Below, in pieces: positions 3,839 to 26,585 of a DNA stretch of 31,432 nucleotides. The notes under the pieces are model-generated. The model was not told where the DNA came from and made no database searches. It was given only the letters and a program-made list of their open reading frames with translations. Location of the stretch: assembly GCA_041498975.1 (NCBI GenBank), contig JBGQJI010000011.1, positions 1-31,432 on the forward strand, given 5' to 3'. The stretch's first letter is position 1. Each line of letters starts with the position of its first letter. The DNA comes from Candidatus Methylomirabilis sp. Lineage in GTDB: Bacteria > Methylomirabilota > Methylomirabilia > Methylomirabilales > Methylomirabilaceae. Made by a program: the position numbers and the translations under genes.

Positions 3839-5674
<1,836 letters not shown>

Positions 5675-5796: not shown

Positions 5797-5823
5797 GACA
5801 AGACTCTCCTGCCAGATTACAGT
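5795..5823 (+). promoter_or_regulatory. Sigma70-type promoter for pcrA
   Basis: TTGACA (5795-5800), 17-nt spacer, TACAGT (5818-5823). Confidence 0.65.
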
Positions 5824-5843
5824 TGGACCATGTTCGCCGATCG

Positions 5844-9185: not shown

Positions 9186-9473
9186 GTGAAGATCACGATC
9201 AAGGAAGTCGAGCATGTGGCCCGGCTGGCCCGCCTGGAGCTGACGGAAGAGGAAAAGGAGCGGACGCGCGCGCAGCTCGACTCCATCCTGAGTTACATCG
9301 ACAAGCTGAATGAGCTGGACACCTCCGCGGTGGAGCCGACCTCGCACGTCTTGCCGATGACAAACGTGTTCCGGGAGGATGAGGTCCGCCCCTCGCTCTC
9401 TCAGGAAGAGGCCCTGGCCAATGCCCCCGACAGGCATGACCTCTTCTTCCGTGTCCCGAGGATCCTGGAGTGA
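9186..9473 (+). CDS. gatC: Asp/Glu-tRNA amidotransferase subunit C
   Basis: [13 protein letters not shown]...EPTSH...FREDEV...NAP...FRVPRILE. Confidence 0.96.
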
Positions 9474-9477
9474 CCTG

Positions 9478-10942: not shown

Positions 10943-11350
10943 ATGCAGGTAACGCTAAGGCAATTCGGGATGGCGCTTGCCCTGGTCGTCAGCGTGGCGC
11001 CTTGCTTGGCATCGGCTGCCAACAAGGATCTGGTAATCGTCAACTCGGAGCGGTGGATCGACACGATCAAGGGGACGGTGAAGAACGTCAGCGCCGATCG
11101 GGCCGAGGAGGTCGTCATCGTGGTTCGCTTCTACGGAGGTGCCGTCAGCACCACGAGGCCCCACGGCCGGAAGTCTGCCCCCCATCAGGAGATGGGACAG
11201 CAGACCGTTAGAATGGCGACGCTCGAGCCGGGCCAGGAAGCACCATTCGAAGTGGAGATCGCCGAAAAGCATCGCAAGGCGACGTCTTTCAAGTTTGAGC
11301 CCCATGCCATCTGGCGCAAGGGCAGTGGGACCCGTTCCCACGGGCATTAG
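10943..11350 (+). CDS. Secreted hypothetical protein, FxLYD-like Ig fold
   Basis: ATG 10943; signal peptide ending ASA; IKGTVKN...VVIVVRFY...LEPGQEAPFEV pattern. Confidence 0.65.
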   Translation: MQVTLRQFGMALALVVSVAPCLASAANKDLVIVNSERWIDTIKGTVKNVSADRAEEVVIVVRFYGGAVSTTRPHGRKSAPHQEMGQQTVRMATLEPGQEAPFEVEIAEKHRKATSFKFEPHAIWRKGSGTRSHGH

Positions 11351-11354
11351 CGAG

Positions 11355-11798
11355 ATGCTCTACTTTGCCTATGGCTCCAACATGGAGAGGGTGCAGTTGA
11401 AGCGACTTTGCCCGAAGGCCAGATTCGTGGCCGCGGCAGTCCTTCCCGACCATGAGTTGGTCTTCTCCGGAAGCTCGCGGATGTGGGGCGGCGGGGTCGC
11501 GGACATCCGCGACGGACCGAGGAAGAAGGTCGAGGGCGTTGTCTGGGAGATCAGCGAAGCCGAACGAACGGCATTGGACGAATATGAAGGGTATCCCGAG
11601 TTCTACGTCACCAAGGAGGTCCAGGTGAGCGCCACCTCAGGCAAGCTGCTCACGGCTTTTGCCTACGTGATGGCCAGACCGGGTCGCGAGATGCCCCCCT
11701 CAAAGCCGTATAAGCGGCTGCTGATCAGCGGCGCCGAGGAGCATGGCCTGTCCGAAAAGTACGTCGCTTTTCTCGAGTCGATCCGCCCGGCGAGCTAA
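11355..11798 (+). CDS. Gamma-glutamylcyclotransferase (GGCT/AIG2-like) family protein
   Basis: Starts MLYFAYGSNM; VEGVVWEI, LDEYEG, PSKPY...GAEEHGL. Confidence 0.9.
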   Translation: MLYFAYGSNMERVQLKRLCPKARFVAAAVLPDHELVFSGSSRMWGGGVADIRDGPRKKVEGVVWEISEAERTALDEYEGYPEFYVTKEVQVSATSGKLLTAFAYVMARPGREMPPSKPYKRLLISGAEEHGLSEKYVAFLESIRPAS

Positions 11799-11920: not shown

Positions 11921-13393
11921 TTGCCAACGACAACCCCGTATGAAGCGGTCATCGGGCTGGAGGTGCACGCCCAGATCCTGACCCGGTCAAAGATCTTCTG
12001 CGGCTGCAGCGCCTCCTTCGGTGCCATGCCGAACAGCCAGACCTGTCCGGTCTGCCTCGGAATGCCGGGAGTCCTCCCGGTCCTGAACAAACGCGTGGTG
12101 GAGTTCGCCATCAAGACCGCGGTCGCGTTGGGGTCCGAGATCGCCGAGTGGTGCCGCTTCGCCAGGAAAAACTACTTCTATCCTGACATGCCGAAAAACT
12201 ACCAGATCTCTCAGTACGAATTGCCGCTGGCCAGGAAGGGGACGATCGAATTCCCCGTGGATGGGGTCACGAAGCTCGTCCGAATCCATCGGGTTCACCT
12301 GGAAGAGGATGTCGGAAAGCTGCTGCACGCCGGCGCCTTTCAGGCTGCAGACTACAGCCTCGTGGATTTCAACCGGAGCGGCGTCCCGCTGATGGAGATC
12401 GTGAGCGAGCCTGACATCCGAAGCCCTGAGGAGGCTGCCGAATACCTCCGTCAGCTCAGGGCGATCGTGGTCTACCTTGAGGTCTGCGACGGGAATATGG
12501 AGGAAGGCAGCCTGCGCTGCGATGCCAACGTCTCGGTGCGACGTGCTGGAACCGAGGAGATGGGCGTCAAGGCCGAGGTCAAGAACATGAACTCCTTCAA
12601 GAATGTTCAAAAGGCCCTGGCCTACGAGATCCAGCGGCAGGTCCGGGTCCTCGAGGAGGGAGGGCGGATCGTCCAGGAGACGCGGCTGTGGGACGCCGAC
12701 CAGGAGCTGACGCTTCCGATGCGGAGCAAAGAGTCCGCGCACGACTACCGCTACTTCCCCGAGCCAGACCTGGTTCCTCTGGCTGTCTCGAAGGAATGGG
12801 TCGATGAGGTCCGTGCGACGCTGCCGGAACTGCCAAGGGAGCGCCGCGCCCGGTTTGTTCGGGAGTACGGCATCCCGGACTACGACGCCGCGGTCCTGAC
12901 CACCTCAAGGCCGCTCGCCGGCTACTACGAGGAGGTGGTCAAGGCCTTCGCCGAGCCCAAGATCGCCAGCAACTGGGTGATGGTGGAGCTGTTGGGGCAG
13001 TTGAACAAAGAGGGCCGGGACATCGCCGAGAGCCCGATCCCGCCGGCAGGACTGGCTGCGCTTCTCAAGCTGCTGAAGAGCGAGACCATCAGCGGCAAGA
13101 TCGCCAAGACGGTTTTCGAGGAGATGTACCGCACCGGGAAGCCGGCAGAGACGATCGTCAGGGAGCAGGGACTGACACAGATTTCCGACCAGGAGGAGTT
13201 GCGTCGGATTGTCGAGGCGGTCCTCGCGGAGCACCCGGGGCCAGTTGCCGACTATCGGAAGGGAAAGGTGCAGAGCTTCACCTTCTTGGTTGGCGCGGTG
13301 ATGAAGGCCAGCCGGGGCAAGGCCAACCCCAAGGCGGTCAATGAGCTGCTCCGTGCCTGCCTGGAGCGAGAGGCGTCGGGGGCAAGCGGATGA
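11921..13393 (+). CDS. gatB: Asp/Glu-tRNA amidotransferase subunit B
   Basis: [51 protein letters not shown] start with AAGGAG. Confidence 0.98.
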
Positions 13394-15351
13394 GGAGGTA
13401 TCGGCGGAACCTGTTGCTCGGGTCCCTCCTGGTGCTGGGTGGTCTCGCGGCTGTGTTGCTCATCGTTCCACTTCTCTTGAACACCGAGCGGTATCGAGGG
13501 ATGCTGGCTAGCCGGGCCAGTCGCCTGCTGAACCGAGAGGTGACAGTGCAAAGCTTGCGCGTGCACCTCGTACCTAGGCCCGGCGCGACGGTTCTGGGCC
13601 TGACCGTTGCTGACCGGGCTCCGTGGTCCGGATCGTTTGTCGAGGCGGAGCGTTTCAAGATGACCATGAAGCTGCTCCCCCTCCTCAGAGGCGAGCTGCA
13701 AGTCGCGGAGGTTCGGATAGACCGCCCGCGGATCCGGCTGGCCCGTGGGCGAGATGGCTGGAATCTCGAAGACCTGATCAGGCCGGTTTCGCGGCCCGGG
13801 ACAACTGATACGCGACGTCCCGAGGGGACACAGTCGGTCAGAGGACAGCCTGCTCTGCCGGTCCTGGTGGCGGGGGCGCTGACCATCAGGGATGGCACCC
13901 TCCTCTTCGAGAGCTCGGCACGAGATCGTGGTTCGGCAAGGCTGGAGATCCGGGATCTGAATGTGGATGCCTCGGCACCGCAGCCTCAAAGCCCCATCCG
14001 TCTCCATGTCAGCGGGCGCCTCCCTGGCGAGGAGTCGGGCTTTTTTGACCTTACCGGGAGCGTTCGACCGGAAGAAGGGGATCGCCTGCCGATCGAAGCG
14101 CAGTTGAAGGTGAGAGGCCTGAAGGCCGCACAACTGGCGTCGCACCTCGGCCTCTCAGGCCCCTCTGCAGCGGCGTTCAATGGAACCTTGGATCTGCAGG
14201 GGAAGGCCGTTGGCGAGTGGCCGCGTATCGATGTTCAGGCCGATGTCGATCTGGAGGGTGTGGGCGTGGCGCTGGGAAGGGAGTCCGCCAAGGCGCCGGG
14301 GGAGAAGGCGTGGTTACGGGCGAAGGGACGGTGGGACGGAGAAGTGCTCGACATCCCGGAGGCGAGCCTGCGCTGGAAAGATCAAACCATTACCGGTCGC
14401 ATCAATGTTGCCGACCTCCAGGCGCCCAGGGTCCGCTTCGAGCTGAACAGTCCGGACCTCGCCGCCGAAACCCTGATGGCAATGGGGGCGGTGCTGGGCT
14501 CTGGGACAAATGGCTCTAGTGCACTCCGCGCCCCGCATTTCTCTGAGGACGCCACTCGCCCCCAACGGTCTGCCGGGCTGCAGGTAGAGGGACGAGTCCG
14601 GTCGGGAGCGCTCCACTGGAGTGGGCTGGCTCTGACTCCTGCCGAGGGGGAGATCCGCTATACAGGAGGGCTCCTCACCATCCGCCGGCTGCATGGAGGG
14701 TTCTACGGCGGGAGTTTGTCAGGGGACGCCGCGCTCGACCTACGCGGCCGACTTCCACACACCTCAGTGACAGCGCGATTGGAGGGGGTCCAGACTGAAC
14801 CATTGCTGAAAGCGCTCCATGAGGAGCGGTGGACGCTCCGCGGGATCATGACCTTGGACTCGAAGTTGGAGCTCTCCGGGCAGCCAGGGCCTGGGGCGCT
14901 CACCAGGGCCTCTGGCCAGAGCGAGCTGATCGTCACAGAGGGGCGCCTGACAGGGTATCCGCCCCTGGAACGGCTGTCCCAGACCTTCAGTCCCATCCTG
15001 AAAGGGGTGGGGATCTCCTCCACGCTCAACGAGTTCGATCGTCTCAGCGCCCACTGGACCCTCGATAACGGGGTACTGCGAACGAAGGATCTGCTGCTGC
15101 AGCGCGAGGGGGTCAGGCTCCTCGCCGCCGGGAGCATGACCCTTCAGGATCAGAGCCTGGACTTTGACGTGACGGCCAGGGTCACGAAGGGGACGCTGGA
15201 GGCCAAGGTGAGCGGGACACCGGCCAACCCGGTGGTGACACCCCAGCTCGCCCGCATTGAACAGCGCGTCAAGACGGAGGTGGGCAAGATCATGAAGGGC
15301 GAGAGGGGCGAGGCGCTCGGAAAAGTGCTGAAGGAACTCTTCCCCCGCTAA
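13390..15351 (+). CDS. AsmA family protein
   Basis: N-terminal membrane anchor, LLPLLRGEL...IDRPRIRL...GWN, C-terminal LYGG-like FYGGSLSG and [15 protein letters not shown] beta-taco segments. Confidence 0.82.
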
Positions 15352-15359
15352 CACGACAG

Positions 15360-16403
15360 ATGCGACTGGCCATCGTCACCCCCTTTTATTTCCCTTCCGT
15401 CCGTGGCAATTCGATCACCGTTCAGCGGATCGAGTCAGGGTTGCGAGACCAGGGCCTCGCGGTCCGAGTCTGGTCCCTAGAGCATGGAACCCCGCCAGAC
15501 GAGAGCCTCCGCGACCTGGAAGAATTCAAACCGGGTCTGGTCCACGGATTCCATGCCACGGCCTCGGGCCGCCTCGTGGTGGACGCCGCGGGACAGTTGG
15601 GCATCCCCTCGATCCTCACTGTCACCGGGACCGATGTCAACAACGATCTCTTCGATCAAGAGCGGAGGGCCGGGGTCATCGACGTCCTCCGGCAGGCCAC
15701 CCGGATCGTGGTTTTCCATGACGTGATGCGGGCGAAGATCGTCGGCGAACTGCCGGAGGTGGAGAGTCGGATACGGGTGATCGGCCAGACTGTCCGGTGC
15801 CCTGAGACTCCGTTCGACTTCCGCGGCCGACTGGGGTTCGGGGCCGATGATCTGATATTCTTCATCCCGGCCGGGGTCCGGCGCGTGAAGAACGTCACCT
15901 TCTGCTTGAAGCCGCTTGAAGCTCTCAAAGCGCGCTATCCACAGATCAAGGCCGTCTTCGTGGGACCCGTGATCGAGGTGGAAGAAGGGGTTCACCTGCA
16001 GGAGGCGGTGAAAGGCCGGCCCTGGGCGTTCTACCTGGGCCCGGTCTCTCACGAGGAAATGTGCGCCATGCTCAAGTCGGTGGATGTGGTGATCAACTCG
16101 TCTCTCTCGGAAGGTGGAATGGCCAATAGCATCCTGGAGGCGATGAGTCGCGGGCGGGCGGTCCTGGTCTCCGACATCGAAGGGAACCGCACGGTGGTGC
16201 GAGACGGGATCGACGGATTCCTCTTCGGGTCGGAGGCAGAGTTCTCCGAAAAGGCCGAACGCCTCATCCGGGACCACAACCTCCGCCACGAGCTGGGAAG
16301 GAAGGGGAAGGAGAAAATCGAGCGGGAGTTCTCCCTGGAAGGAGAGATCCAGGAGTATCTCCAGCTCTACGAGCAAGCACTCGGCGCCGAATCGCGCGGG
16401 TGA
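15360..16403 (+). CDS. GT4 glycosyltransferase, SenB (selenosugar synthase)-like
   Basis: IVTP...GNSITVQR, FHA, TGTD, GQT, RRVKN, SSLSEGG, ILEAM...SDIEGN follow the motif order I recall for SenB and the related GLT1D1-type GTs. GT4 is secure; SenB identity is inferred from motifs plus context. Confidence 0.7.
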   Translation: MRLAIVTPFYFPSVRGNSITVQRIESGLRDQGLAVRVWSLEHGTPPDESLRDLEEFKPGLVHGFHATASGRLVVDAAGQLGIPSILTVTGTDVNNDLFDQERRAGVIDVLRQATRIVVFHDVMRAKIVGELPEVESRIRVIGQTVRCPETPFDFRGRLGFGADDLIFFIPAGVRRVKNVTFCLKPLEALKARYPQIKAVFVGPVIEVEEGVHLQEAVKGRPWAFYLGPVSHEEMCAMLKSVDVVINSSLSEGGMANSILEAMSRGRAVLVSDIEGNRTVVRDGIDGFLFGSEAEFSEKAERLIRDHNLRHELGRKGKEKIEREFSLEGEIQEYLQLYEQALGAESRG

Positions 16404-16416
16404 TGGAAGGCAGATC

Positions 16417-17331
16417 GTGGATCTCCATGTCCTCGAGGTGTTCTGCAGGATCGTCGAATCGGGAAGCTTCTCGAAGGCCGCCGGCGCGGTCTACCTGACC
16501 CAGCCCACGGTGAGTGGCCACGTCAAGAAGCTCGAGGAGGAAGTAGGCGTCAGGCTGCTCGACCGCCTCGGACACCGCGCCACTCCCACCAAGGCCGGCG
16601 AGCTGCTGTATCGCTATGCGAAGCGGATCCTGGCCGTCCGCCAAGAGGCGCAACAGGCCCTCGACGAGTTCAAGGGGGGCCTCAGGGGCGAACTGGTCAT
16701 CGGCGCCAGTAGCATCCCCGGCGGGTACGTGCTGCCGCCCCTGGTCAGCCGGTTCAAGGCGCTGTACCCCGACATCTCCATCGTCCTCCGGGTCTCCTAC
16801 TCGAAGGAGATTCTGGATGCGGTGATCGACGGAGCGTACGAGGTTGGAGCTGTAGGGGCGAAATTCGATGACGCCAGGATCGAGTACCATAAATTCGCCG
16901 AAGACGAGATGGTCCTGGTGGTTCACCCCGGGCATCCATGGGCGGCCAGGGGGAGCGTCAAGCCGAAAGAGCTGCCCACTCAGCCGTGGTTCATCAGAGA
17001 GCGGGGCTCCGGGACGCGCAAGATGATGGAGCAGGCCCTGGAACAGCATAACCTCTCACTGAGCGCCTTCAGGGTGATCGGGGAGATGGGCAATAACGAG
17101 GCGATCCGGCAGGCGGTCAAGGCCGGAGGAGGCGTGGCGATCATCTCGAAGCTAGCCGTCGAGAGCAGCATTAAATGCCGCGAACTGGCGGCCGTCCGCG
17201 TCGCGGGCCTGAAGCTGACCAGGGACTTCTACCTCGTTACCCACCGCCACCGGTCGCGCTCCCCGATCTGCAAAGCCTTTCTCAAATTTCTCGGCATTCT
17301 CACTCCGCATAGCGATTCCCATCATTCGTGA
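16417..17331 (+). CDS. LysR-type regulator, CysL-like/selenium-metabolism-associated subgroup
   Basis: SFSKAA..VYLTQPTVSGHVKKLEEE HTH; IGASSIPGGYVLP; IRERGSGTR; EAIRQAVKAG. Confidence 0.85.
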   Translation: MDLHVLEVFCRIVESGSFSKAAGAVYLTQPTVSGHVKKLEEEVGVRLLDRLGHRATPTKAGELLYRYAKRILAVRQEAQQALDEFKGGLRGELVIGASSIPGGYVLPPLVSRFKALYPDISIVLRVSYSKEILDAVIDGAYEVGAVGAKFDDARIEYHKFAEDEMVLVVHPGHPWAARGSVKPKELPTQPWFIRERGSGTRKMMEQALEQHNLSLSAFRVIGEMGNNEAIRQAVKAGGGVAIISKLAVESSIKCRELAAVRVAGLKLTRDFYLVTHRHRSRSPICKAFLKFLGILTPHSDSHHS

Positions 17332-17387
17332 CCTCGCCAGCCACCCACTGGTGGCGCCTACCCTCCAGTCCCCCTCACCGACGTGCT

Positions 17388-17978
17388 TCACGAGACAGTG
17401 ATCTCGACCGCCCCTGTTCCGAGATCGTACCGAGCCCCGACAATTCTGATCTTCCCTTTTTCTATGAATTCCGCCAGGATCTTCGAACCCATCAATCTCC
17501 TCACAGTCAGTTCGACGTTTGCTTTGACCGCGTTGTCGAGTAGGTCGCCTGGCTGGCCTCTCACCTTCTGGACGGCTGGCTTGATGGCTTTGACCAGCGA
17601 GGTGACTGCGCCATGTGGCTTCGCGCGCTTTTCGACCGCTACTATTGTTGCAGCCACCGCGGCACATGTTTGATGACCAAGCACGATGACCAACGGTATT
17701 CCGAGTTCGTGTACCCCGAATTCGACGCTGTTCAACGATGCGCTGTCTAAGGCATGACCCGCCGTCCGGATCACTAACAAATCACCAATTCCACGGTCAA
17801 AGACGAGTTCCGGCGGTACCCGAGAATCCACGCACCCGAAGACGATGGCGAACGGCTTTTGGCCTTTAGCCACTTCTGCCCGCCGGTCCGCCGTCTGATT
17901 GGGGCGCGCCATCTCTTCGGCGACGTACCGCCGATTGCCTTCCTTCAACTGATGGAGCGCTTGATCAGCGTTTATCAC
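17388..17978 (-). CDS. Beta-class carbonic anhydrase
   Basis: LKEGNRRY, GQKPFA, CVDSRV, GHQTC Zn ligands, YDLGTG. The N-terminal leader may be out of frame (see findings). Confidence 0.93.
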   Translation of the reverse strand: MINADQALHQLKEGNRRYVAEEMARPNQTADRRAEVAKGQKPFAIVFGCVDSRVPPELVFDRGIGDLLVIRTAGHALDSASLNSVEFGVHELGIPLVIVLGHQTCAAVAATIVAVEKRAKPHGAVTSLVKAIKPAVQKVRGQPGDLLDNAVKANVELTVRRLMGSKILAEFIEKGKIRIVGARYDLGTGAVEITVS

Positions 17979-18238
17979 GGCAGCCTCTAGGTCAGTGCTC
18001 CCGGAGCGTTGGGGTTGGCGCGCCAGCCACGAGCGTCGCTCCAGCGGCCGGCACGCCTGCTAGCAACAGACAAGGATAGGAGCGGCGACGCTTTCGGTAA
18101 CGCATCAAATCGAAGTGAAATGGAGCCGGGCATGCGAAAGCCTGAAAGGATTTGGCTGGGGGCCTATAGTGAAAATCCGAACGTCTTAGGAACGAAATCG
18201 CCGCTTTGGGAAAGGCAGCCCGCTTGAATGGAGAGGCC

Positions 18239-18261
18239 GGGTGGACCTATGAGGCCCACCC
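18239..18261 (-). terminator. Hairpin downstream of the small peptide gene
   Basis: Minus-strand RNA GGGUGGGCCU-CAU-AGGUCCACCC forms 10 bp with one G-U pair, complete only on the minus strand; no U tract. Confidence 0.5.
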
Positions 18262-18280
18262 GACTCACAGGCTCAATTAA

Positions 18281-18388
18281 TTAGCCACAGCGGGGCGATT
18301 TCATCGGCCCACAAGAAGATGACGACGGCTTCTTGCTTGACGCCGACTTCTTGACCTCCTTTTTCTTCGAGCCTGATGCTTTGGCCAT
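18281..18388 (-). CDS. 35-aa Lys/Ser-rich peptide with two C-terminal Cys (not in ORF track)
   Basis: MAKASGSKKKEVKKSASSKKPSSSSCGPMKSPRCG*; perfect SD AAGGAGGTG 6 nt before ATG; upstream promoter-like boxes; downstream hairpin. Confidence 0.75.
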   Translation of the reverse strand: MAKASGSKKKEVKKSASSKKPSSSSCGPMKSPRCG

Positions 18389-18421
18389 CTCGCATCACCT
18401 CCTTCCACCTAGATCACTCAC

Positions 18422-18451
18422 AAGTTACTTCGCCGTCGGCCGGAGCGTCAA
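18422..18451 (-). promoter_or_regulatory. Sigma70-like promoter for the small peptide
   Basis: Minus strand TTGACG, 18-nt spacer, TAACTT. Confidence 0.5.
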
Positions 18452-18569
18452 GCTGAAAATAAACACAGTTCAACGAAAATGTCGGAACTTGATCAGGACA
18501 GGGGGAGACCGGGGATAACAGCAAGGGATTCGCCAGTGGTGTCGCCCTAAAGCGCCGGACCCAGGCTTT

Positions 18570-19316
18570 CTATCTTCGCGCGTGTACCTCTGCGGCAAGC
18601 ACCCGCGGGTTCCTCGTCCGGGAATTGCGAGTTCTTCGGAGAATAGTGGCTTCACGAAAACCAACCACCCGAAACTCTTCGAGGAAGGCGCCGCCTTCCT
18701 TGGCTCCAGCAATTCAGGCAAACCAGTTGGCTTCGCTGTCCAGAATCTCTGGAGGGAGGGGTTCGTGCAAGATCAGTTCGGCCGCGTAGACTTCGCCGCC
18801 CTGCCGAACTGCTCGTGCAAGTTCGTGGAAGATTTCGTCCCTTTCTGGGTTCAGGTTAAAGATGCCATTGACCAGGGCCACGTCGATCAAGCCGTCATCA
18901 ATTGGCAGCTTTTCCGCATCTGCCTGATAGAATTCCACGTGGCCAACCCCGACCTCCGCTGCAGACTGACGGGCACGCGCAAGCATGGCTTCGCTGAAGT
19001 CCACGCCGATCACCCTGCCTCTTGGACCAACCCGTTGTGCGGCAATCAAGGAATCGAGGCCAGCTCCGCACCCCAAATCGAGGACGACGGCGCCCACCGG
19101 AATCTCTGCGAAGACGGCCACGTTAGAAACTCCAGAAAAGGCATCTACAGAGACGGGTGGCAATGCAGCGAGGAGATTCTGCGGGTAGCCCAAGCTCTCC
19201 GCCAGAGCACGCCCTACAGGAAATGGATGCGTATCCTGCGGTCTTTCCGCTGCCGCAGAATATGCCCTTCGAACGCCATCACGAAGCCGTGTTTTCTCCA
19301 TCTTCATCCACCCCAT
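18570..19316 (-). CDS. ArsM-like class I SAM-dependent methyltransferase, predicted selenoprotein (UGA at 18714-18716 read as Sec)
   Basis: VLDLGCGAGLD, GRVIGVDFS, ADAEKLP; NWFA-TGA-IAGA aligns to ArsM WxxCIAGA; frame stays open for 47 codons (IAGAKEGGAFLEEFRVVGFREATI...EVHARR) to TAG 18570-18572; SECIS-like hairpin follows. Start could be ATG 19316, 19307 or 19301. Confidence 0.88.
18682..18700 (-). promoter_or_regulatory. Bacterial SECIS-like stem-loop
   Basis: 13 nt after the UGA: AGGAAGGC-GGC-GCCUUCCU, 8-bp perfect stem with G at the start of the apical loop. Confidence 0.75.
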
Positions 19317-19478
19317 GTTCGGAACACGAGCGCGAGGGCATCTGTTGCCAGTCTCTCGGCTTAGCCGGTAGAATACAAATCCGTCAGCATTCTATCGCAT
19401 TAGCAAACTATCCGTCAAATCAATAGATATACTATAACTAATCGGTAAAACAAATATATCTTGTTCTTCAAATGGTCT

Positions 19479-19706
19479 CCCAGTGTTTTGCCGGAGTATG
19501 TCGCTTGCATCCTCTGCTCCTGGGAGATCAACATCCGGGAGGCGGTCATCCTGGGCTACGTCGGCGCCGGGGGACTCGGCCAGCAGATCCAGATTGCCAT
19601 CAGCCTCTTCCTGGAGCACCGGCTGCTCACCCTGATCATGGCGATCTACGTGATCGTGACCCTCGTGGATTACCTCAGTGCCTACCTCCGAAGCCGACTC
19701 GTCTGA
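19479..19706 (+). pseudogene. C-terminal remnant of a PhnE/PtxC-family ABC permease
   Basis: PSVLPEYVACILCSWEINIREAVILGYVGAGGLGQQI...LVDYLSAYLRSRLV*; upstream is AT-rich non-coding DNA with no N-terminal half. Confidence 0.8.
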
Positions 19707-19790
19707 GCGCTCCCCTATCCCCCTCTCGGCCCGAGGTCCAGCGGACCACGCCCTGTTGCGAGGGCACTGTTATAGTTGCAAAAATGGCCC

Positions 19791-19819
19791 TTGACAGTTC
19801 TCACGATCCACCCTAGCAT
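19791..19819 (+). promoter_or_regulatory. Sigma70-type promoter
   Basis: TTGACA (19791-19796), 17-nt spacer, TAGCAT (19814-19819); GGAGG RBS before ATG 19871. Confidence 0.65.
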
Positions 19820-19870
19820 CCTCGTACCCTCAGTGGGTGCCACGACAACCTTCAGCATGGAGGTACAGCC

Positions 19871-20326
19871 ATGAAGCGTTCTATCTCTCTCGTGTTGTTG
19901 CTCGTTCTGTCCAGCATTTCCCTGACGGCGTGGGCCGGCGACAAGGAGGACGTGGCCGCCGCGACAGCGAAGTGGGCGGAAACCTTCGTCAACGATGATC
20001 CTGCACCGATCCTTGCCCTCTATGATCAGGAGGCCGTACTGTGGGGGACGATTTCTCCCACCCGGCGGGATGACCCGGCGGCGATTCGCGACTACTTTGT
20101 GAAGGCGTTCGCAGCCCTGCCCCAGCACAAGGTCACCTTTGGGGATCAGTTAATACGGGTCTACGGCAATACGGCCATCAATACCGGCTATTACACGTTT
20201 TCGTTCGTGAAGGAGGGCCAAGCCAAGACTCTGCCCGCGCGGTACAGTTTCACGTACGTGAATCGCGGTGGGAACTGGATGATCGTCGATCATCACTCCT
20301 CCGCGGTGCCCGCACCCCCCAAGTAG
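19871..20326 (+). CDS. Secreted NTF2-like SgcJ/EcaC (CaMKII association domain) protein, candidate iota-class carbonic anhydrase
   Basis: Signal peptide ending AWA; GTIS, DYF, GYYTF, ARYSFTY and C-terminal DHHSS. Confidence 0.8.
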   Translation: MKRSISLVLLLVLSSISLTAWAGDKEDVAAATAKWAETFVNDDPAPILALYDQEAVLWGTISPTRRDDPAAIRDYFVKAFAALPQHKVTFGDQLIRVYGNTAINTGYYTFSFVKEGQAKTLPARYSFTYVNRGGNWMIVDHHSSAVPAPPK

Positions 20327-20471
20327 ACAGAACAACGCGGGCTGCAAGCAGCCGGCTTGCGGTCGCCGGGACGGGTGAACCGTCCGTACTTGCATCTCAT
20401 GGGTTGCTGAGCGCCTTCGAACGTAGAGTTCTGCACCTTTCGAATATCATCGTGTGCCACCTTCCTCTCGA

Positions 20472-20526
20472 TTCCCCTCTCAACCCGACCTTCTCCCCTC
20501 CGGGGAGAAGGAAGGGATGAGGGGAA
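20472..20526. repeat. Dispersed palindromic repeat, copy 2
   Basis: TTCCCCTC...CCTTCTCCCC-tcc-GGGGAGAAGG...GAGGGGAA nested inverted repeat; core matches 9064-9096. Confidence 0.7.
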
Positions 20527-20634
20527 CCGAGAGGTCGCCGGGCGAATGGGTGGCCGCAAATGTGAATCCGGCTATTCGGCAACGGATGCCCCCGCTTTCG
20601 GTCACTGCAGATGAGTTAGCTGTTCAAGCCAAAG

Positions 20635-21981
20635 GTGTTCGTCAAAACCATGGAGACCACCGCTGCCGATCTAGCGCAGATGCTGGTAGATGCTCGCGCC
20701 AGAACCCTGGGGCTCGTCGGAGATCTGACCGATGAGCAACTGATCGGTCCGCGTTTGCCGATCGTGAACCCCCTGCTGTGGGAGATCGGACATCTCGCCT
20801 GGTTCCAGGAGCACTGGGTGCTGCGTCATGTTGGAGGCGAAAAGCCAACTTTGAAGGATGCCGATGGCCTGTACGACTCCGCCAGAGTGCCACACGACGA
20901 CCGCTGGTCACTGCCACTTCCTTCGCGGGCACGGACACTGCGATACATGGAGCAGGTCTTGGACCGTGTTCTCGATCGGATTGCAAGCAGGCCGTTAAAT
21001 GAAGAGCAGATCTATTTCTGCCGCTTGGTGACGTTTCACGAGGACATGCACTATGAGGCATTCGTCTATACGCGGCAAACGTTGGGGTATCCTCCTCCAC
21101 GCCTGCTGACTTCCGGTGCAGGTGAATTGTCCGCCACCGACGACCTCGCCGGACCCTGGCGAGGAGATGTGGAAATACCAGGTGGTCCCTACATGCTGGG
21201 CGGCACTCCCGATTTGCCTTTCGTGTTCGATAATGAGAAATGGGCACATCCGGTGGATATTCGTCCGTTCCGGATCGCGCAGGCGCCGGTGACCAACGGC
21301 GAGTTTGTCCAGTTCGTGGATGATCGAGGCTATGAACGACGAGACCTGTGGAGTGATGCGGGCTGGGCCTGGCGAGAGCGGGTCAACGCGAAGCATCCGG
21401 TCTACTGGCAGCCGGGCATTGGTGGAGCCTCGCTGCACCGCAGGTATGACAAATTTTTGCCGCTTGAGGAGCACTTGCCGGTGATCCATGTCAACTGGTA
21501 TGAGGCGGAGGCATACTGCCGATGGGCACATCGCCGGCTGCCGACTGAGGCCGAGTGGGAGATGGCCGCCTCTGCGGGACCGACCGCCGACGGTCAGGCG
21601 GTTCACACACAAAAACGCCTTTTCCCCTGGGGCGACGTTCCACCTGCCCCTGAACGGGCAAATCTCGACCTCGGCGTAGGGGGATGTATTCCGGTGAACC
21701 TGCTGCCGGCCGGCGATAGTGCCTTCGGCTGCCGGCAAATGATCGGCAACGTGTGGGAGTGGACGGTCAATGATTTCGACCCCTTCCCTGGCTTCGCGAT
21801 TGACCCGTACAAGGAGTACTCCGAGCCCTGGTTCGGGGGAACGCACAAGGTTCTTCGCGGTGGCGCCTTTGTCACCCGGTCTCGCCTCATCCGCAACTCC
21901 TATCGGAACTTCTACACGCCGGGCCGCCGCGATGTGCTGGCCGGTTTCCGCACCTGTAGTCTTGAAGACCAGACCAGATGA
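20635..21981 (+). CDS. senA: Selenoneine synthase SenA-like (EgtB superfamily: DinB-like plus FGE-sulfatase domains)
   Basis: VNPLLWEIGHLAWFQEHW (SenA-type rather than EgtB SPxKWHLAH), HEDMHYE completing the 3-His iron triad, FDNEKWAH, RLPTEAEWE, GNVWEW, PYKEYSEPWF, GFR. Start is GTG 20635 or ATG 20650. Confidence 0.78.
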   Translation: MFVKTMETTAADLAQMLVDARARTLGLVGDLTDEQLIGPRLPIVNPLLWEIGHLAWFQEHWVLRHVGGEKPTLKDADGLYDSARVPHDDRWSLPLPSRARTLRYMEQVLDRVLDRIASRPLNEEQIYFCRLVTFHEDMHYEAFVYTRQTLGYPPPRLLTSGAGELSATDDLAGPWRGDVEIPGGPYMLGGTPDLPFVFDNEKWAHPVDIRPFRIAQAPVTNGEFVQFVDDRGYERRDLWSDAGWAWRERVNAKHPVYWQPGIGGASLHRRYDKFLPLEEHLPVIHVNWYEAEAYCRWAHRRLPTEAEWEMAASAGPTADGQAVHTQKRLFPWGDVPPAPERANLDLGVGGCIPVNLLPAGDSAFGCRQMIGNVWEWTVNDFDPFPGFAIDPYKEYSEPWFGGTHKVLRGGAFVTRSRLIRNSYRNFYTPGRRDVLAGFRTCSLEDQTR

Positions 21982-22952
21982 CTGACACAGAACGGTATGC
22001 CAGCATTATTCTGCGGAGGGTAGAGAACGATCTGGCCCGTGACGTCCAAGAAGCGCTGACGGGCGAGTGTAAGTCGCTTCCGTGCAAATATTTTTACGAC
22101 CAGCAAGGCATGGCCCTGTTCGAGCAGATTTGTGATCTGCCGGAGTACTACCTGACTCGGGTGGAGACGGCCATTCTGAAGAACCGGGCCGATCGAATGA
22201 TCGAACTCTGCCCCTCGGACCTGGCCTTGGTCGAATTGGGCAGCGGCAGCTCTACGAAGAGCCGGTACCTGATCGAAGCGTGCCTCGGGAGACAGGAGCA
22301 ACTCATCTACTACGCGATTGACATCTCGCCGGGCGCCCTGGAGAACGGGGTTCGACAGCTCTTACAAGAATATGCGCAACTGCGGGTTGTGGGGTTGGTG
22401 GGAGAGTTTGCGGATGGGCTGAGCTATCTCGCCAACCATGCGAGTGGACCGCGGTTGGTCGCATTTCTGGGCTCCACGGTTGGCAACTTTACGGAGGCAG
22501 AGATCGCACGGTTTTTCACCATGCTTCGTCGTCACCTACGGCCCTCAGACCGGTTGCTTCTGGGGGTTGACCTGCTCAAAGATCCCTCAGTGCTCGAGGC
22601 CGCCTACGACGATTCCCAGGGTATCACTGCAGAGTTCAACCTAAATATCCTCGCCCGTCTTAATCGGGAGCTAGCTGCGGACTTCGATCTGGAAGCATTT
22701 CGGCATCGCGCGCTCTTCAACCGCGAGCGCAGCCGTATTGAGATGCACTTGGTCAGCTTGCGCAACCAGCGCGTAAGGATCAAGGCTCTGGGACTAGACA
22801 TCGATCTCCGTGAGGGTGAGGCCGTCCATACGGAGAACTGCTATAAGTATTCCGAGGATGGAATGAAGTCGCTGCTGGCATCCCACGGGTTCCAGGTCCT
22901 ACGCCGTTTCACTGACCCCCACGACCAGTTTTGCCTTTTCCTAGCCTCCTGA
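21978..22952 (+). CDS. egtD: L-histidine N-alpha-trimethyltransferase (hercynine synthase)
   Basis: LPCKYFYD, LPEYYLTRVE, ELGSGSSTK, FLGSTVGNF, AYDDSQGITAEFNLN, RIEMHL, HTENCYKY; ATGA overlap with senA. Confidence 0.95.
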   Translation: MTDTERYASIILRRVENDLARDVQEALTGECKSLPCKYFYDQQGMALFEQICDLPEYYLTRVETAILKNRADRMIELCPSDLALVELGSGSSTKSRYLIEACLGRQEQLIYYAIDISPGALENGVRQLLQEYAQLRVVGLVGEFADGLSYLANHASGPRLVAFLGSTVGNFTEAEIARFFTMLRRHLRPSDRLLLGVDLLKDPSVLEAAYDDSQGITAEFNLNILARLNRELAADFDLEAFRHRALFNRERSRIEMHLVSLRNQRVRIKALGLDIDLREGEAVHTENCYKYSEDGMKSLLASHGFQVLRRFTDPHDQFCLFLAS

Positions 22953-23048
22953 TCGGCCCGACCCGGGATGCTCCAGGTGCCCTCAACAAACCAACCATGA
23001 ACGAGTTGCCCGCCGCAGAACTACTCAAGTGCCCTAGCTTACCTCACA

Positions 23049-23801
23049 ATGCCAGCGTCGATTGAATTTGATCGCGTCTCTTACCGGCTTTCCGGCGGCG
23101 TCGCGGTCCTTGACGATGTGAGCTTCACCGTCGAGGGCGGCGAGGTGCTCGTGCTCGTCGGCCGGAGCGGCGTCGGCAAGACGACCGTTCTTCGGTTGAT
23201 CAATCGCCTCTTGGTACCCAGCGCTGGCGAGGTGCGGGTCGAGGGCCGCGCGACCACGGAGTGGGATCCGATCGCGTTGCGCCGGCGAATCGGCTATGTG
23301 CTCCAGGAGGTGGGGTTGTTCCCACACATGACTATCGGCCGCAACATCGCGGTCGTTCCCCGCCTGGAAGGATGGCCGGAGGACCGCATCCGCGCGCGTT
23401 GTGTCGAACTTCTCGAGCTTGTCGGACTCGACCCCGTAAGGTTTGAAGGTCGATTTCCCCACGAACTCTCAGGAGGTCAACGCCAACGTGTAGGATTTGC
23501 ACGGGCGCTTGCCGCCGACCCGCCGGTGGTCTTGATGGACGAACCGTTCGGTGCGCTGGATCCTCTCACCCGGTCTGAAATCCACCGGGAGTTTCATCGT
23601 ATTCAAGAGCGGGTCCGCAAGACGGTCGTGATGGTGACCCACGACATGGGTGAAGCCTTTGCACTCGCGACCAGAATGGGCGTCCTGGCTGAGGGTCACC
23701 TCGTGGCGCTCGACACCCCGGATGCAATCGCCAGGGCCAGCGATCCGATGGTCCGAATGTTCCTCGACGCGCTCCCGCCTGTGCCCGGACACGTTCGATG
23801 A
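23049..23801 (+). CDS. ABC ATP-binding subunit, OpuA/ProV (EgtV-like) family
   Basis: GRSGVGKTT, LRRRIGYVLQEVGLFPHMT, LSGGQRQRVG, LMDEPFGALDP. Confidence 0.92.
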   Translation: MPASIEFDRVSYRLSGGVAVLDDVSFTVEGGEVLVLVGRSGVGKTTVLRLINRLLVPSAGEVRVEGRATTEWDPIALRRRIGYVLQEVGLFPHMTIGRNIAVVPRLEGWPEDRIRARCVELLELVGLDPVRFEGRFPHELSGGQRQRVGFARALAADPPVVLMDEPFGALDPLTRSEIHREFHRIQERVRKTVVMVTHDMGEAFALATRMGVLAEGHLVALDTPDAIARASDPMVRMFLDALPPVPGHVR

Positions 23802-25336
23802 ACCTCATTGACTTCTGGCTCTCACATCGCGCCGAGATGCTGGGCGCGCTCTCTCAGCATGTCGTCCTTACGCTGGTGGCCACCGCCACGGCCATTGCGA
23901 TGGGCGTGCCGCTCGGGATCGTGGCAGCCCGACGGCCCCGGCTGGGCACGGCGCTGCTGGCCTTTGCCAACATCTTCCAGACAGTCCCCAGCCTGGCCAT
24001 GTTCGGGTTTCTGGTGGCCGTCCCGCTCATCGGAGGCGTCGGCGCACGAAGCGCCCTCATCGTTCTGATTCTCTATGCATTGCTTCCGGTCATGCGCAAC
24101 ACCGTCGCCGGCATCCAGGGCGTCGATCGGGCTGCCCGCGAGGCAGGTGTCGCCATGGGCATGACGGCGCGACAGTTGTTGCTCCAGGTGGAGCTTCCGC
24201 TGGCGACGCCCACGATTGTCGCCGGCGTGCGCGTCGCGGCAGTCATCGGAGTGGGAGCGGCCACGATTGCCGCCGCAATCGGTGCCGGAGGGCTGGGCGA
24301 CTATATCTTCCGGGGTCTCTCGATGACCGACCCGACCGTGATCCTCGCCGGCGCGGTCCCGGCGGCGCTCCTCGCGCTTGCGGTTGACGCGGCCCTCGGC
24401 TGGCTCGAGCGCGCCCTGACGCCAGGAGTCGCAAGGCGCCGGCGCGTGACCTTCCGGGTGGTGGCGGCCATCGCCATGACGCTTACGGTGATCGTGGCCG
24501 GCGCCTTCGCCCTGTCAGGACGCTGGGGGACGCGCGTCATCATCGGGTCGAAGAACTTCACGGAGCAGGTCATTCTCGGGGAGCTCCTGGCGCAAGTGGT
24601 CGAGCGGACGACCGAGCTTCGCGTCGATCGCCGCTTGAATCTCGGAGGGACATTCATCTGCGAGGAGGCGCTGCGCGCGGGCGCCATCGACGCCTACGTC
24701 GAGTACACCGGAACAGCGCTTACGGCGATCTTCCACCAGCCGGTGGCCAGGGATCGCGAGCAGGTGTATGCGCGCGTCGCCGCCGCGTACGCCGCGACTG
24801 GCCGCGCTGTACTGCCCCCACTCGGCTTCAACAATACGTTTGCGATTCTGATACGGGCCGCCGACGCGAGGCGGCTGCAGCTCAAGACCATCAGCGACGC
24901 GGCGGCGTACACGCCGAAGTGGAAGGCGGCATTCGGGTACGAGTTCCTCGAGCGCGAAGATGGCTACAAAGGGCTGTCGCAGACGTATCGCTTGCGTTTC
25001 GCCGAGCCCCCTCGCGTGATGGATCTGACGCTGAGCTACCGCGCGCTTGCCAGCGGCGCGGTCGATCTGATCGCCGGTGATGCGACGAATGGGCTCATCA
25101 AGGGACTCGATCTCTTCATGCTGGAAGACGATCGGCGCTATTTCCCGCCCTACGACGCGATTCCCGTCGTGCGGACTCAGACATTAGCGGCACACCCTGA
25201 GCTTCGGACGGCCATCGAGCGGGTAACCGGGCGAATCTCGGAGGAGACGATGCGCCAGATGAATTACGAGGTGGATGTCCGGCACCGCGACGCGGCGGCC
25301 GTCGTCCGCGAGTTCCTCGACAAGTTAGGATCATGA
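23798..25336 (+). CDS. Fused permease and substrate-binding protein, glycine-betaine/ergothioneine (EgtU/OpuBD-like) ABC transporter
   Basis: QTVPSLAMFG, EAA-loop-like EAGVAMGMT, GAGGLG; SBP with GSKNFTEQ, YVEYTGT, GFNNTF, REDGY, FPPY; ATGA overlap with the ATPase. Confidence 0.92.
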   Translation: MNLIDFWLSHRAEMLGALSQHVVLTLVATATAIAMGVPLGIVAARRPRLGTALLAFANIFQTVPSLAMFGFLVAVPLIGGVGARSALIVLILYALLPVMRNTVAGIQGVDRAAREAGVAMGMTARQLLLQVELPLATPTIVAGVRVAAVIGVGAATIAAAIGAGGLGDYIFRGLSMTDPTVILAGAVPAALLALAVDAALGWLERALTPGVARRRRVTFRVVAAIAMTLTVIVAGAFALSGRWGTRVIIGSKNFTEQVILGELLAQVVERTTELRVDRRLNLGGTFICEEALRAGAIDAYVEYTGTALTAIFHQPVARDREQVYARVAAAYAATGRAVLPPLGFNNTFAILIRAADARRLQLKTISDAAAYTPKWKAAFGYEFLEREDGYKGLSQTYRLRFAEPPRVMDLTLSYRALASGAVDLIAGDATNGLIKGLDLFMLEDDRRYFPPYDAIPVVRTQTLAAHPELRTAIERVTGRISEETMRQMNYEVDVRHRDAAAVVREFLDKLGS

Positions 25337-25377
25337 TCGCCGAGCGAATCTTCAACGCATCCTTCACATTTTGGGTG

Positions 25378-25430
25378 TGTAGGGGCGCTGCTTGCTGCGC
25401 CCTGTCCACAGGACCAGCCCTGCCCCTACA
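25378..25430. repeat. GTAG-family REP-like inverted repeat
   Basis: TGTAGGGGC...GCCCCTACA termini with inner GGGCGC...GCGCCC hairpin. Confidence 0.7.
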
Positions 25431-25481
25431 TTCCCGATCGTCATGCCAGATTCCCCGCTGTGGTGGGATGTGGGTTGGCGC

Positions 25482-26585
25482 GTGATCGAGGCACACACCG
25501 ACGTGGTCGGCAGCCTCCTCCGGCCCCCCGAACTCCTGGAGGCGCAACGGAAACTCTCCCATGCCGAGATCACGCCAGCCGAGTTCAGACGGATCGAGGA
25601 TCGCGCCGTGGACGAGGCGTTACGACTACAGGAAGAGGCCGGTCTCGATGTTGTGACCGACGGAGAGATGCGCCGGCTCTCCTTCCAGAGCCAGATGACA
25701 GCAGCCGTCGAGGGCTTCAGCGAGTGGGACCTCAACGCCTTCCTGTGGGGAAGGTGGCAGAGCGATGAGCTCGGGGAGATGGTGGTCGAGCGGCCGCCGA
25801 TCACCGTCGTGAGCAAGCTTCGCCGCAAGCGCTTCCTCTCAGCCGAAGAGTTCACCTATGCGGGCGGCCGAACAGCCAGGGTGTTAAAGGTGACGCTGCC
25901 GAGCCCGAGCCTATTTGCCAACTTCTGGGACTCCCGTCGCTCAAGCGGAGCGTACGTGCGCCTGGACGATTTCCTCGGGGACGCGGCAGAGATCCTCCGC
26001 GAAGAGGTCGAAGAGCTCGTGCGGCTCGGCGCGACCTACATCCAGCTCGACGCGCCGCAGTACCCGCTCCTCATGAACCCACGCTACCGGAGCTTTTACG
26101 AGAGCCGTGGCTGGCCGGCCGATCGCTGGCTCGAACTCGGACTCGAACTCGACAATCGCGTGATCGGCAACCACCCGCACGTGACCTTCGGCTTTCACCT
26201 CTGCCGCGGGAACCAGGCAAGCCGCTGGCTCGTGGCTGGCGGCTATGATTGGCTGGCTCCGCGCATCTTTCCCAGAATCCGCGCGCAACGGCTCCTCCTA
26301 GAGTACGACGATCGCCGTTCCGGGACATTCGAGCCGCTTGCCGCAGTCCCCGAAGACAAAATGGTCGTTCTCGGCCTCGTGACGACGAAGACGCCCCGGC
26401 GGGAGACAGTCGAGGAGCTGGTGGGACGCATCCGGGAGGCGAGTGTCCTGGTCCCGCTGGAGCGACTCGCGCTCTCCCCGCAGTGCGGCTTCGCCAGCTC
26501 CGTGATCGGGAACGCGATCTCCGTAGAAGACCAGCGGGCCAAGCTCAGGACAATCGTCGAGACGGCGGCGGCGGTCTGGGTATGA
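25482..26585 (+). CDS. Cobalamin-independent methionine synthase II (MetE C-terminal-domain-only) family protein
   Basis: GTG 25482; VVGSLLRP, VVTDGEMRR, YIQLDAP, Zn ligands HLCRGN, LEYD and SPQCGFAS. Confidence 0.9.
   Translation: MIEAHTDVVGSLLRPPELLEAQRKLSHAEITPAEFRRIEDRAVDEALRLQEEAGLDVVTDGEMRRLSFQSQMTAAVEGFSEWDLNAFLWGRWQSDELGEMVVERPPITVVSKLRRKRFLSAEEFTYAGGRTARVLKVTLPSPSLFANFWDSRRSSGAYVRLDDFLGDAAEILREEVEELVRLGATYIQLDAPQYPLLMNPRYRSFYESRGWPADRWLELGLELDNRVIGNHPHVTFGFHLCRGNQASRWLVAGGYDWLAPRIFPRIRAQRLLLEYDDRRSGTFEPLAAVPEDKMVVLGLVTTKTPRRETVEELVGRIREASVLVPLERLALSPQCGFASSVIGNAISVEDQRAKLRTIVETAAAVWV

Follow-up and report, generated by a model that had tools for sequence, protein, structure and literature searches.

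The 31,432-nucleotide stretch of Candidatus Methylomirabilis sp. contig JBGQJI010000011.1 analyzed here (the window; G+C content about 62%) carries, within about 11 kb, a group of genes connected with selenium, among them senA, which encodes a predicted selenoneine synthase. In our judgement this 11-kb stretch is probably a juxtaposition of three units: a senA-egtD-importer-metE-II operon unlinked to senB, a module of the selenocysteine (Sec) trait, and the end of a housekeeping gene row that includes a GT4 glycosyltransferase. The first unit (20635–26585) would be a five-gene operon with the order senA-egtD-ATPase-(permease/binding domain)-metE-II. The second (16417–19316) would pair LysR_Se, a regulator suspected of sensing selenophosphate, with a convergent unit of methyltransferase, 35-amino-acid peptide and carbonic anhydrase. 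In the third, the glycosyltransferase would belong to the upstream gatB-asmA row.

The window was annotated by listing its open reading frames (ORFs) and scanning them with NCBIfam and Pfam. The features of the 11-kb stretch are as follows; L002 is one of the related loci described below, all of which are designated by L numbers.

15360–16403, plus strand: GT4 glycosyltransferase of the 'GPMC system' type (NF038229)
16417–17331, plus strand: LysR_Se, selenium-metabolism-associated LysR regulator (NF040786)
17388–17978, minus strand: beta-class carbonic anhydrase (PF00484, 125.4 bits)
18281–18388, minus strand: 35-amino-acid Lys/Ser-rich ORF, read from the sequence
18570–19316, minus strand: ArsM-family S-adenosylmethionine (SAM) methyltransferase, a predicted selenoprotein with motif U-I-A-G and an in-frame TGA at 18714–18716
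18682–18700, minus strand: hairpin of 8 bp with a GGC loop, resembling a selenocysteine insertion sequence (SECIS), from its fold and its conservation in L002
19389–19418, minus strand: promoter-like site TTGACG-18-TAGAAT of the methyltransferase unit, conserved in L002
19871–20326, plus strand: DUF4440/SnoaL-like secreted protein with an N-terminal signal-like segment
20635–21981, plus strand: SenA, long form (NF041186)
21978–22952, plus strand: EgtD (TIGR03438)
23049–23801, plus strand: ATP-binding cassette (ABC) ATPase of ProV/OpuA type, in an EgtV-like position (TIGR01186, 260.6 bits; cutoff 326.6)
23798–25336, plus strand: fused permease and OpuAC-type binding domain with EgtU-like architecture (PF00528 and PF04069)
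25482–26585, plus strand: MetE-II, Cys form (PF01717; a longer ORF starts at 25392)

A sequence-only reading had described this stretch as a single selenometabolite island of seven items, and six of them are present. The selenium-associated LysR scored 294.7 bits with NF040786 (cutoff 250); the methyltransferase gene has its in-frame TGA, with ArsM-family scores that rise on read-through; senA and egtD both exceed their hidden Markov model (HMM) cutoffs and overlap by ATGA, and the protein encoded from 20635 is not an ordinary EgtB; an EgtUV-like transporter is there as an ATPase and a permease/OpuAC fusion; and the zinc MetE-like enzyme has the PF01717 domain with its zinc-site motifs. The seventh item, a SenB-like glycosyltransferase, did not hold up (78.2 bits with TIGR04348, cutoff 300). 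The reported absence of egtA, egtC, egtE and selD from the window was likewise seen by us: 31 window ORFs were scanned, of which 21 are not among the ten island genes, and none matched EgtA, EgtC, EgtE, SenB or SelD. Scans of the window for tRNA genes and for Rfam families returned nothing.

On sequence grounds we identify the protein encoded at 20635–21981 as SenA, a selenoneine synthase (non-haem iron selenoxide synthase). It scored 512.2 bits with the SenA model NF041186, above the cutoff of 420, and 322.5 bits with the EgtB model TIGR03440, under the cutoff of 360. A composite motif of 17 positions has been reported to sort these enzymes, with the rule xNEH--HRHxHYYN(F/Y)(F/Y)R for SenA and xSDH--RRHQHYYNWDR for EgtB-I (PMC11030361). 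The accessible text of that paper names only M401, Q430 and A431 of OvsA among the motif positions; we mapped the positions from alignments to OvsA, EgtB and SenA structures. The window protein has N45 E50 H53 / H87 R90 / H135 M138 H139 / Y392 Y395 / N425 F426 Y427 R431, which follows the SenA rule and departs from those of EgtB-I, EgtB-II and OvsA. It differs from EgtB-I at six positions (N, E, H87, M138, F426 and Y427 versus S, D, R, Q, W and D), and has Y395/N425/F426 where OvsA has its histidine-binding triad M/Q/A. In all SenAs the Arg and Asp of EgtB are reportedly replaced by His and Phe/Tyr (bioRxiv 10.1101/2022.04.13.486033, from the portion available), and H87 and Y427 of the window protein match that replacement. 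Its nearest relatives are encoded in Methylomirabilota metagenome-assembled genomes (77–78% identity).

The remaining genes of the operon fit a pathway to selenoneine. EgtD scored 367.7 bits with TIGR03438, above the cutoff of 290.9, and ATGA overlaps are found at both the senA/egtD and the ATPase/permease junctions. EgtD would convert histidine and three SAM to hercynine, which SenA would combine with a selenosugar and O2 to give a selenoxide that collapses to selenoneine. The selenosugar would come from SenB and SelD encoded elsewhere in the genome. The ATPase and fused permease/OpuAC binding domain have the architecture of EgtUV, and this betaine-type ABC importer would take up a trimethylammonium compound (hercynine, ergothioneine or selenoneine). 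Against Protein Data Bank (PDB) structures, the binding domain scored 188 bits with OpuBC-derived sensors, 157 with OpuCC and 153 with EgtUC, which ranked 12th; the residues reported as ergothioneine-specific in EgtUC are a Y-to-F switch, G244 and E375 (PMC9732360, as far as its accessible text goes). MetE-II most likely remethylates homocysteine, and so would recycle the three molecules of S-adenosylhomocysteine released per hercynine.

To place the operon among its relatives, we built a profile from an alignment of 24 homologues and scanned genome contigs for SenA with it; the best 80 loci from 590 confirmed relatives were kept. In these loci, ORFs of at least 90 amino acids were searched with the window proteins and with profiles for SenB and SelD whose seeds came from NCBIfam-confirmed loci. 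In 63 of the 80, SenA shares its locus with a SenB scoring at least 195 bits, nearly always its direct neighbor, so the SenA clade as a whole is selenosugar-linked. EgtD is present in 25 loci and the MetE-like enzyme in four, all from Methylomirabilota. SelD occurs within 10 kb of SenA in nine. The window-type LysR and the window-type methyltransferase were each found in a single locus, the LysR merely 35% identical and the methyltransferase in the near-identical relative L002. Homologues of the DUF4440 protein, the AsmA-like protein and the GPMC-type GT4 were found in none of the 80.

Seventeen loci lack SenB: L001–L007 from Methylomirabilota, L009, L038 and L060 from Poribacteria, and L019, L034, L054, L067, L070, L077 and L078. 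Several of these contigs are short; about 5–10 kb could be examined on both sides in L003, L005, L007, L009, L034, L038, L054 and L060, and the flanks of L003, L005 and L009 held no further selenium genes above cutoffs. On a quick SenA tree with 79 rows (the partial L067 was removed, and the set contains no SenA ORF for L056), the SenB-less label takes six changes, at least four of them forced by well-supported branches. The SenB-less loci thus form several separate groups on this sequence tree. Methylomirabilota and Poribacteria both show the SenB-less form repeatedly, and its active-site motif is unaltered: the 15-position string NEH/HR/HMH/YY/NFY/RR is identical in 38 SenB-linked and 11 SenB-less rows, window included, among 80 rows. 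The active site therefore gives no sign of a change of donor.

Two fragmentary arrangements were seen around senB. L078 has just an 85-codon SenB-like fragment beside SenA (L078:9672–9956), which could reflect decay of senB or a misassembly. In L016, the sister locus of the SenB-less Poribacteria group, about 6.5 kb separate senA from a downstream set of senB (a partial ORF), egtD and an ABC ATPase (L016:17810–21377); this cluster may be partway to dispersal. In L071 (5999–8326), where SelD adjoins SenB and SenA, it carries a fused pyridine-nucleotide-disulfide oxidoreductase domain at its N-terminus (TIGR03169, NCBIfam); ORF length alone points to the same fusion in L073 (5603–7831).

The gene set of the operon recurs in other Methylomirabilota. 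L001 has the order of the window, senA-egtD-ATPase-permease-metE-like, while L005, L006 and L007 have egtD-metE-like-senA-ATPase-permease. Two orders of one gene set show that the set outlived rearrangement. A fusion of permease and binding domain is present in 11 of the 80 loci, eight of them without SenB; the other three, L025–L027, have both, and the importer of L026 is the second closest to that of the window (54% identical). We also considered whether the importer could replace SenB by taking up a selenosugar. This was rejected: the binding domain is of the quaternary-amine type, and the importer stands beside SenB in L025–L027, which makes it an accessory of sen/egtD clusters and not a SenB substitute.

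L002 has a further gene group of interest. In the interval that separates the Sec methyltransferase gene from senA, which in the window contains the DUF4440 gene, L002 carries a four-gene PhnCDE-like ABC system (L002:1648–5333) whose binding protein scored 332 bits with TIGR04553, 'putative selenate ABC transporter' (cutoff 250). A selenate-type transporter is reported near a subset of sen clusters (bioRxiv 10.1101/2022.04.13.486033, portion available). The regions upstream of senA in the window and in L002 have no regulatory motif in common.

The last gene of the operon received separate attention. The likely true start of metE-II is the GTG at 25482, giving 367 residues as in homologues. The protein scored 72 bits with PF01717 and has FHLCRGN, LLEYD and PQCGF, the zinc-site motifs. 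We take the zinc ligands of MetE enzymes to be H-x-C ... E ... C. Its best structure match is PDB 1YPX (172 bits). The family, named 'methionine synthase II', extends over several phyla, with 120 listed matches of 349–397 residues that are 77–92% identical. In the window the zinc-ligand Cys is encoded by TGC at 26202–26204. The same position is TGA in L005 (9552–9554), L006 (2199–2201) and L007 (4497–4499), within FGFHL-U-RGNQ, and read-through restores a full-length protein that is conserved to its end. A hairpin with a GGU loop, 8 nucleotides past the UGA, is common to these three loci, one G-C pair being changed to A-U in L006; it is absent from the Cys form of the window. None of the MetE-II hairpins is more stable than shuffled sequences in this GC-rich DNA. 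Among the 150 cluster representatives listed by an exhaustive search with the L005 protein as query, three ended exactly one residue before the Sec site (...FAFHL, ...FALHV and ...FSFHL), the outcome expected of automated gene calling at a Sec codon. The UGA-containing MetE-II of these three Methylomirabilales loci may thus represent an undescribed selenoprotein family. The accessible text of the 2026 selenoprotein catalogue (PMC13188914) contains no mention of methionine synthase, MetE, PF01717 or homocysteine, and a literature search found no description of a cobalamin-independent methionine synthase as a selenoprotein.

These observations raise another role for MetE-II, namely that it is a selenol methyltransferase, which would make or remove the methyl group of Se-methylselenoneine or a methylselenide and would be the enzyme that actually performs tailoring or salvage in the cluster. 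Its gene stays with egtD and senA through the change of gene order within Methylomirabilota, the UGA at the zinc-ligand Cys comes with a SECIS-like hairpin that the Cys form is missing, and distant relatives in the superfamily have been linked to methyl-selenium metabolism (PMC10418091, as far as accessible). However, the high identity of this widespread family among the listed matches fits a core metabolic role, it occurs near SenA in only four of the 80 loci, all from one phylum, and the demand of EgtD for three SAM simply explains a methionine synthase in the operon. We regard a selenol-acting MetE-II as unlikely, if the best placed of the alternatives, and favor the recycling of homocysteine.

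The absence of SenB from these loci could also mean that the SenB-less 'SenA' of Methylomirabilota is a sulfoxide synthase, or uses another sulfur or selenium donor, and that the operon makes ergothioneine or a relative. No SenB was detected in the flanks of the seven Methylomirabilota and three Poribacteria loci, six of these ten with about 5–10 kb on both sides. Structure comparisons also ranked OvsA first for the window protein (335 and 326 bits with 8U41 and 8UX5), followed by Mycolicibacterium thermoresistibile EgtB at 271 bits, ahead of Variovorax paradoxus SenA at 251. The ranking has a simple source: a segment of about 55 residues (315–370), of the type found in EgtB-I and OvsA, is present in the window protein and almost all 80 relatives and missing from V. 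paradoxus SenA, which lowers the pairwise score of the latter. The long segment is shared by the 38 SenB-linked enzymes whose active-site string equals that of the window protein, and their donor site is the same. At that site N45, E50, H87 and Y427 are of SenA type and not the S, D, R and D of EgtB-I. In addition, the score with the EgtB HMM is below cutoff, no EgtC or EgtE match was found among the window ORFs, and the putative selenate importer directly upstream of senA in L002 is a feature reported for sen clusters. A switch of donor therefore appears improbable, and a selenoneine-type SenA remains our preferred assignment.

The glycosyltransferase at 15360–16403 is not SenB. Its score of 78.2 bits with TIGR04348 compares with 428 bits for the SenB of L068, and in a jackhmmer profile of SenB from the related loci it reached 71 bits, versus 415–526 for 60 full-length SenBs and 195–280 for three partial SenB ORFs. 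Its top NCBIfam match is NF038229, 'GPMC system GT4', at 343.7 bits, under that model's cutoff of 400, and there was no SenB structure among its 18 PDB matches. Both the TIGR04348 and the profile scores place it outside the SenB clade, so the window holds no selenosugar synthase. Some resemblance is clear. Of the 66 columns conserved to 90% or more in SenB, the GT4 retains 35, and in NCBIfam scans each of the two families, GPMC-type GT4 and SenB, ranks second for the other. Key residues reported for SenB are N20/T23, T83/T85, K158 and the EGGAHV motif (PMC10891094, accessible text); the GT4 has SenB-type GN..T, TGTD and R..K, with V. paradoxus SenB numbering mapped by motif only, and an EGG motif (EGG.AN) with a one-residue insertion relative to SenB. 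Its gene comes last among the biosynthetic genes of a tight gatB-asmA-GT4 row, 8 nucleotides from the asmA-like gene and 13 from the LysR_Se gene, and belongs with this upstream row. None of the other 17 SenB-less loci has a GPMC-type GT4. A literature search found no description of the role of the 'GPMC system'.

The genes at 16417–19316 make up the proposed Sec-trait module. LysR_Se, above its cutoff, belongs to a family reported to be confined to organisms that contain SelD and mostly decode Sec, with selenophosphate as the suspected effector (PMC5322559, accessible text). Read through with TGA as U, the methyltransferase gains 47 residues for a total of 248 amino acids, and its scores rise from 141.9 to 168.1 bits with PRK11873 and from 166.7 to 191.8 with ArsM_AhpD_UU; all NCBIfam ArsM models stay under their cutoffs. 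The start codon is probably at 19301–19307. In alignments to ArsM structures (5EVJ and 4FR0) the U falls at the third arsenite-binding Cys, while Val and Gly occupy the first and second positions. Three arsenite-binding cysteines we take to be the mark of ArsM proper. With Val and Gly at two of the positions a three-thiolate As(III) site cannot form, and we rejected the enzyme as an arsenite methyltransferase proper, since only the third Cys position is kept, as Sec. It has instead the features of the UxxG selenoproteins, an in-frame UGA at a conserved Cys with homology continuing beyond it; 'arsenite methyltransferase, UxxG' is an entry of the 2026 prokaryotic selenoprotein catalogue (PMC13188914, accessible part).

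The hairpin that follows this UGA is a candidate SECIS, with its first paired base 13 nucleotides past the last base of the UGA and a G in the loop. UGA and hairpin are identical in L002, whose methyltransferase is 93% identical. Its stability is not above that of shuffled sequences (z = 0.06) in this GC-rich DNA, so the evidence for Sec lies in homology and conservation and not in fold energy. Further 3' of the UGA, a 57-nucleotide in-frame indel (a deletion in L002) is the behavior of coding sequence. Given a LysR_Se above cutoff, a UGA selenoprotein gene and the restriction of LysR_Se to SelD organisms, we expect the organism to have the Sec trait and hence SelD, which would be encoded elsewhere.

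The methyltransferase gene is transcribed divergently from senA, with its own promoter-like site conserved in L002, and the DUF4440 gene lies between the two. The carbonic anhydrase gene lies downstream on the same strand as the methyltransferase gene; it and the 35-amino-acid ORF occupy the space between LysR_Se and the methyltransferase. The sequence-only reading named neither of these two nor the DUF4440 gene. The small ORF ends in CGPMKSPRCG, is accompanied by a Shine-Dalgarno sequence, promoter-like upstream sequence and a GC hairpin on its 3' side, and is kept in L002 with mostly silent or conservative changes. It has no Pfam match.

The putative selenate importer of L002 and the Sec-form MetE-II of L005–L007 support a looser 'selenium neighborhood'. 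A stronger form would be that the operon recruited a selenol-acting MetE-II, with Sec as zinc ligand in sister lineages, and that operon, selenate importer, Sec methyltransferase and LysR_Se make up one selenophosphate-sensing regulon; we judge this to have little chance of being correct. Least probable of all is a single co-regulated island in which the GT4 serves as selenosugar synthase and either the selenosugar or the final product receives a methyl group from the Sec methyltransferase, a proposal that draws on the packing of all genes within 11 kb, the LysR_Se gene 13 nucleotides behind the GT4 gene, the repeat of the methyltransferase-senA adjacency in L002 with a selenate-type importer between, and the likeness of GT4 to SenB, and that conflicts with the SenB scores of the GT4, its packing with gatB and asmA and absence from the other SenB-less loci, the methyltransferase's own promoter, divergent orientation and presence near SenA in one of 80 loci, and a selenoprotein family catalogued without a link to selenoneine.

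The sequence-only reading had made further proposals along these lines. It called the glycosyltransferase SenB-like and gave a position outside the SenB clade as a refuting condition; the scores show just such a position. It also suggested that the selenoenzyme tailors the product; this is unsupported, because the methyltransferase belongs to the known ArsM/UxxG family, has its own promoter away from senA and adjoins SenA in one of 80 loci. Of the 'non-canonical, dispersed sen system' it described, a senA-egtD pair without SenB or SelD in the window is real, but there is nothing special in the dispersal, as the scarcity of SelD near SenA (9 of 80 loci) indicates. Three-gene clusters are reported for 827 of 2,353 TIGR04348 genes (bioRxiv 10.1101/2022.04.13.486033, portion available); dispersed sen genes are common and not peculiar to this window. 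Neighborhood conservation, which it had asked to be examined, extends to the senA-egtD-importer-metE-II set (L001 and L005–L007) and not to the methyltransferase, found with SenA in L002 only.

Several points weigh against the division into three units. SenB and SelD were not seen in the window or in the seven Methylomirabilota loci, the genome contigs having been scanned for SenA only. A protein search with the SenB of L014 gave no Methylomirabilota-named match among 120 listed, most of which are nameless, so this result is uninformative. No promoter-like site was found directly 5' of senA, and the role proposed for MetE-II follows from its family membership. The 13-nucleotide GT4-LysR_Se junction and the nearest-neighbor relation of GT4 and SenB also count on this side, and the adjacency in L002, with its putative selenate importer, may leave some functional or regulatory coupling of the selenium genes.

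Most components have known counterparts. Selenoneine biosynthesis was defined in 2022 as the senA-senB-senC cassette of V. paradoxus (bioRxiv 10.1101/2022.04.13.486033, portion available). The window shares with it the SenA active-site residues and hercynine from EgtD, and a selenate-type transporter in L002 only; in contrast to it, the window has no senB or senC/selD in 31 kb, a SenA longer by about 55 residues, and an operon with the additional betaine-type ABC importer and MetE-II gene. The OvsA/ovoselenol cluster (PMC11030361, accessible text) has the same N-E-H / H-R donor-site residues, but the partner gene of the window is egtD and not ovsM, and Y395/N425/F426 is the hercynine-binding SenA form. 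Like EgtUV (PMC9732360, accessible text), the importer consists of an ATPase and, encoded next, a permease fused to an OpuAC-type binding domain; it scores higher on OpuBC/OpuCC-type binders (157–188 bits) than on EgtUC. It is part of a biosynthetic operon, while the reported EgtUV comes from non-producers. The methyltransferase shares with the UxxG arsenite methyltransferase (PMC13188914, accessible part) the Sec in U-x-x-G at the third arsenite-binding Cys position and differs in the Val and Gly at the other two. As with LysR_Se/HrsM (PMC5322559, accessible text), the regulator adjoins a selenoprotein gene; unlike there, it is not beside selA, selB or selD and follows a GT4 gene. Neither the pathway nor the importer type is thus new, and the same holds for the families of the regulator and of the selenoprotein methyltransferase; NCBI already names close homologues SenA. 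New are the SenA without SenB in the company of egtD, a betaine importer and MetE-II, and the Sec MetE-II if confirmed. A literature search found nothing joining selenoneine with Methylomirabilis.

The rest of the window is occupied as follows.

212–1540, plus strand: folC
1537–2283, plus strand: aspartic protease
2446–3834, plus strand: glmU
ending at 5674, plus strand: glmS
5823–8087, plus strand: pcrA
8505–9095, plus strand: cation diffusion facilitator (CDF) transporter
9379–10938, plus strand: gatA
11139–11798, plus strand: AIG2/gamma-glutamyl-cyclotransferase-like (AIG2/GGACT-like) gene, between gatA and gatB
11921–13393, plus strand: gatB
13390–15351, plus strand: AsmA-like protein, its gene overlapping gatB
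downstream of the MetE-II gene: an AraC-like fragment, an SRPBCC protein and Ada

Our analysis corrects the view of this locus in one respect, as the glycosyltransferase that gave it a complete look is not SenB. If confirmed, the Sec form of MetE-II would be a new selenoprotein family and a rare example in which Sec serves as a zinc ligand. The senA-senB-senC cassette is not the sole stable arrangement, since in the window and in 17 of the 80 related loci a SenA whose active site is intact stands apart from SenB. Without SenB, SenA is repeatedly accompanied by egtD and the betaine-type importer, and in Methylomirabilota also by MetE-II. Such SenB-unlinked producers would escape genome mining that takes selD or senB as its starting point, and the organisms concerned include nitrite-dependent methane oxidizers and sponge symbionts.

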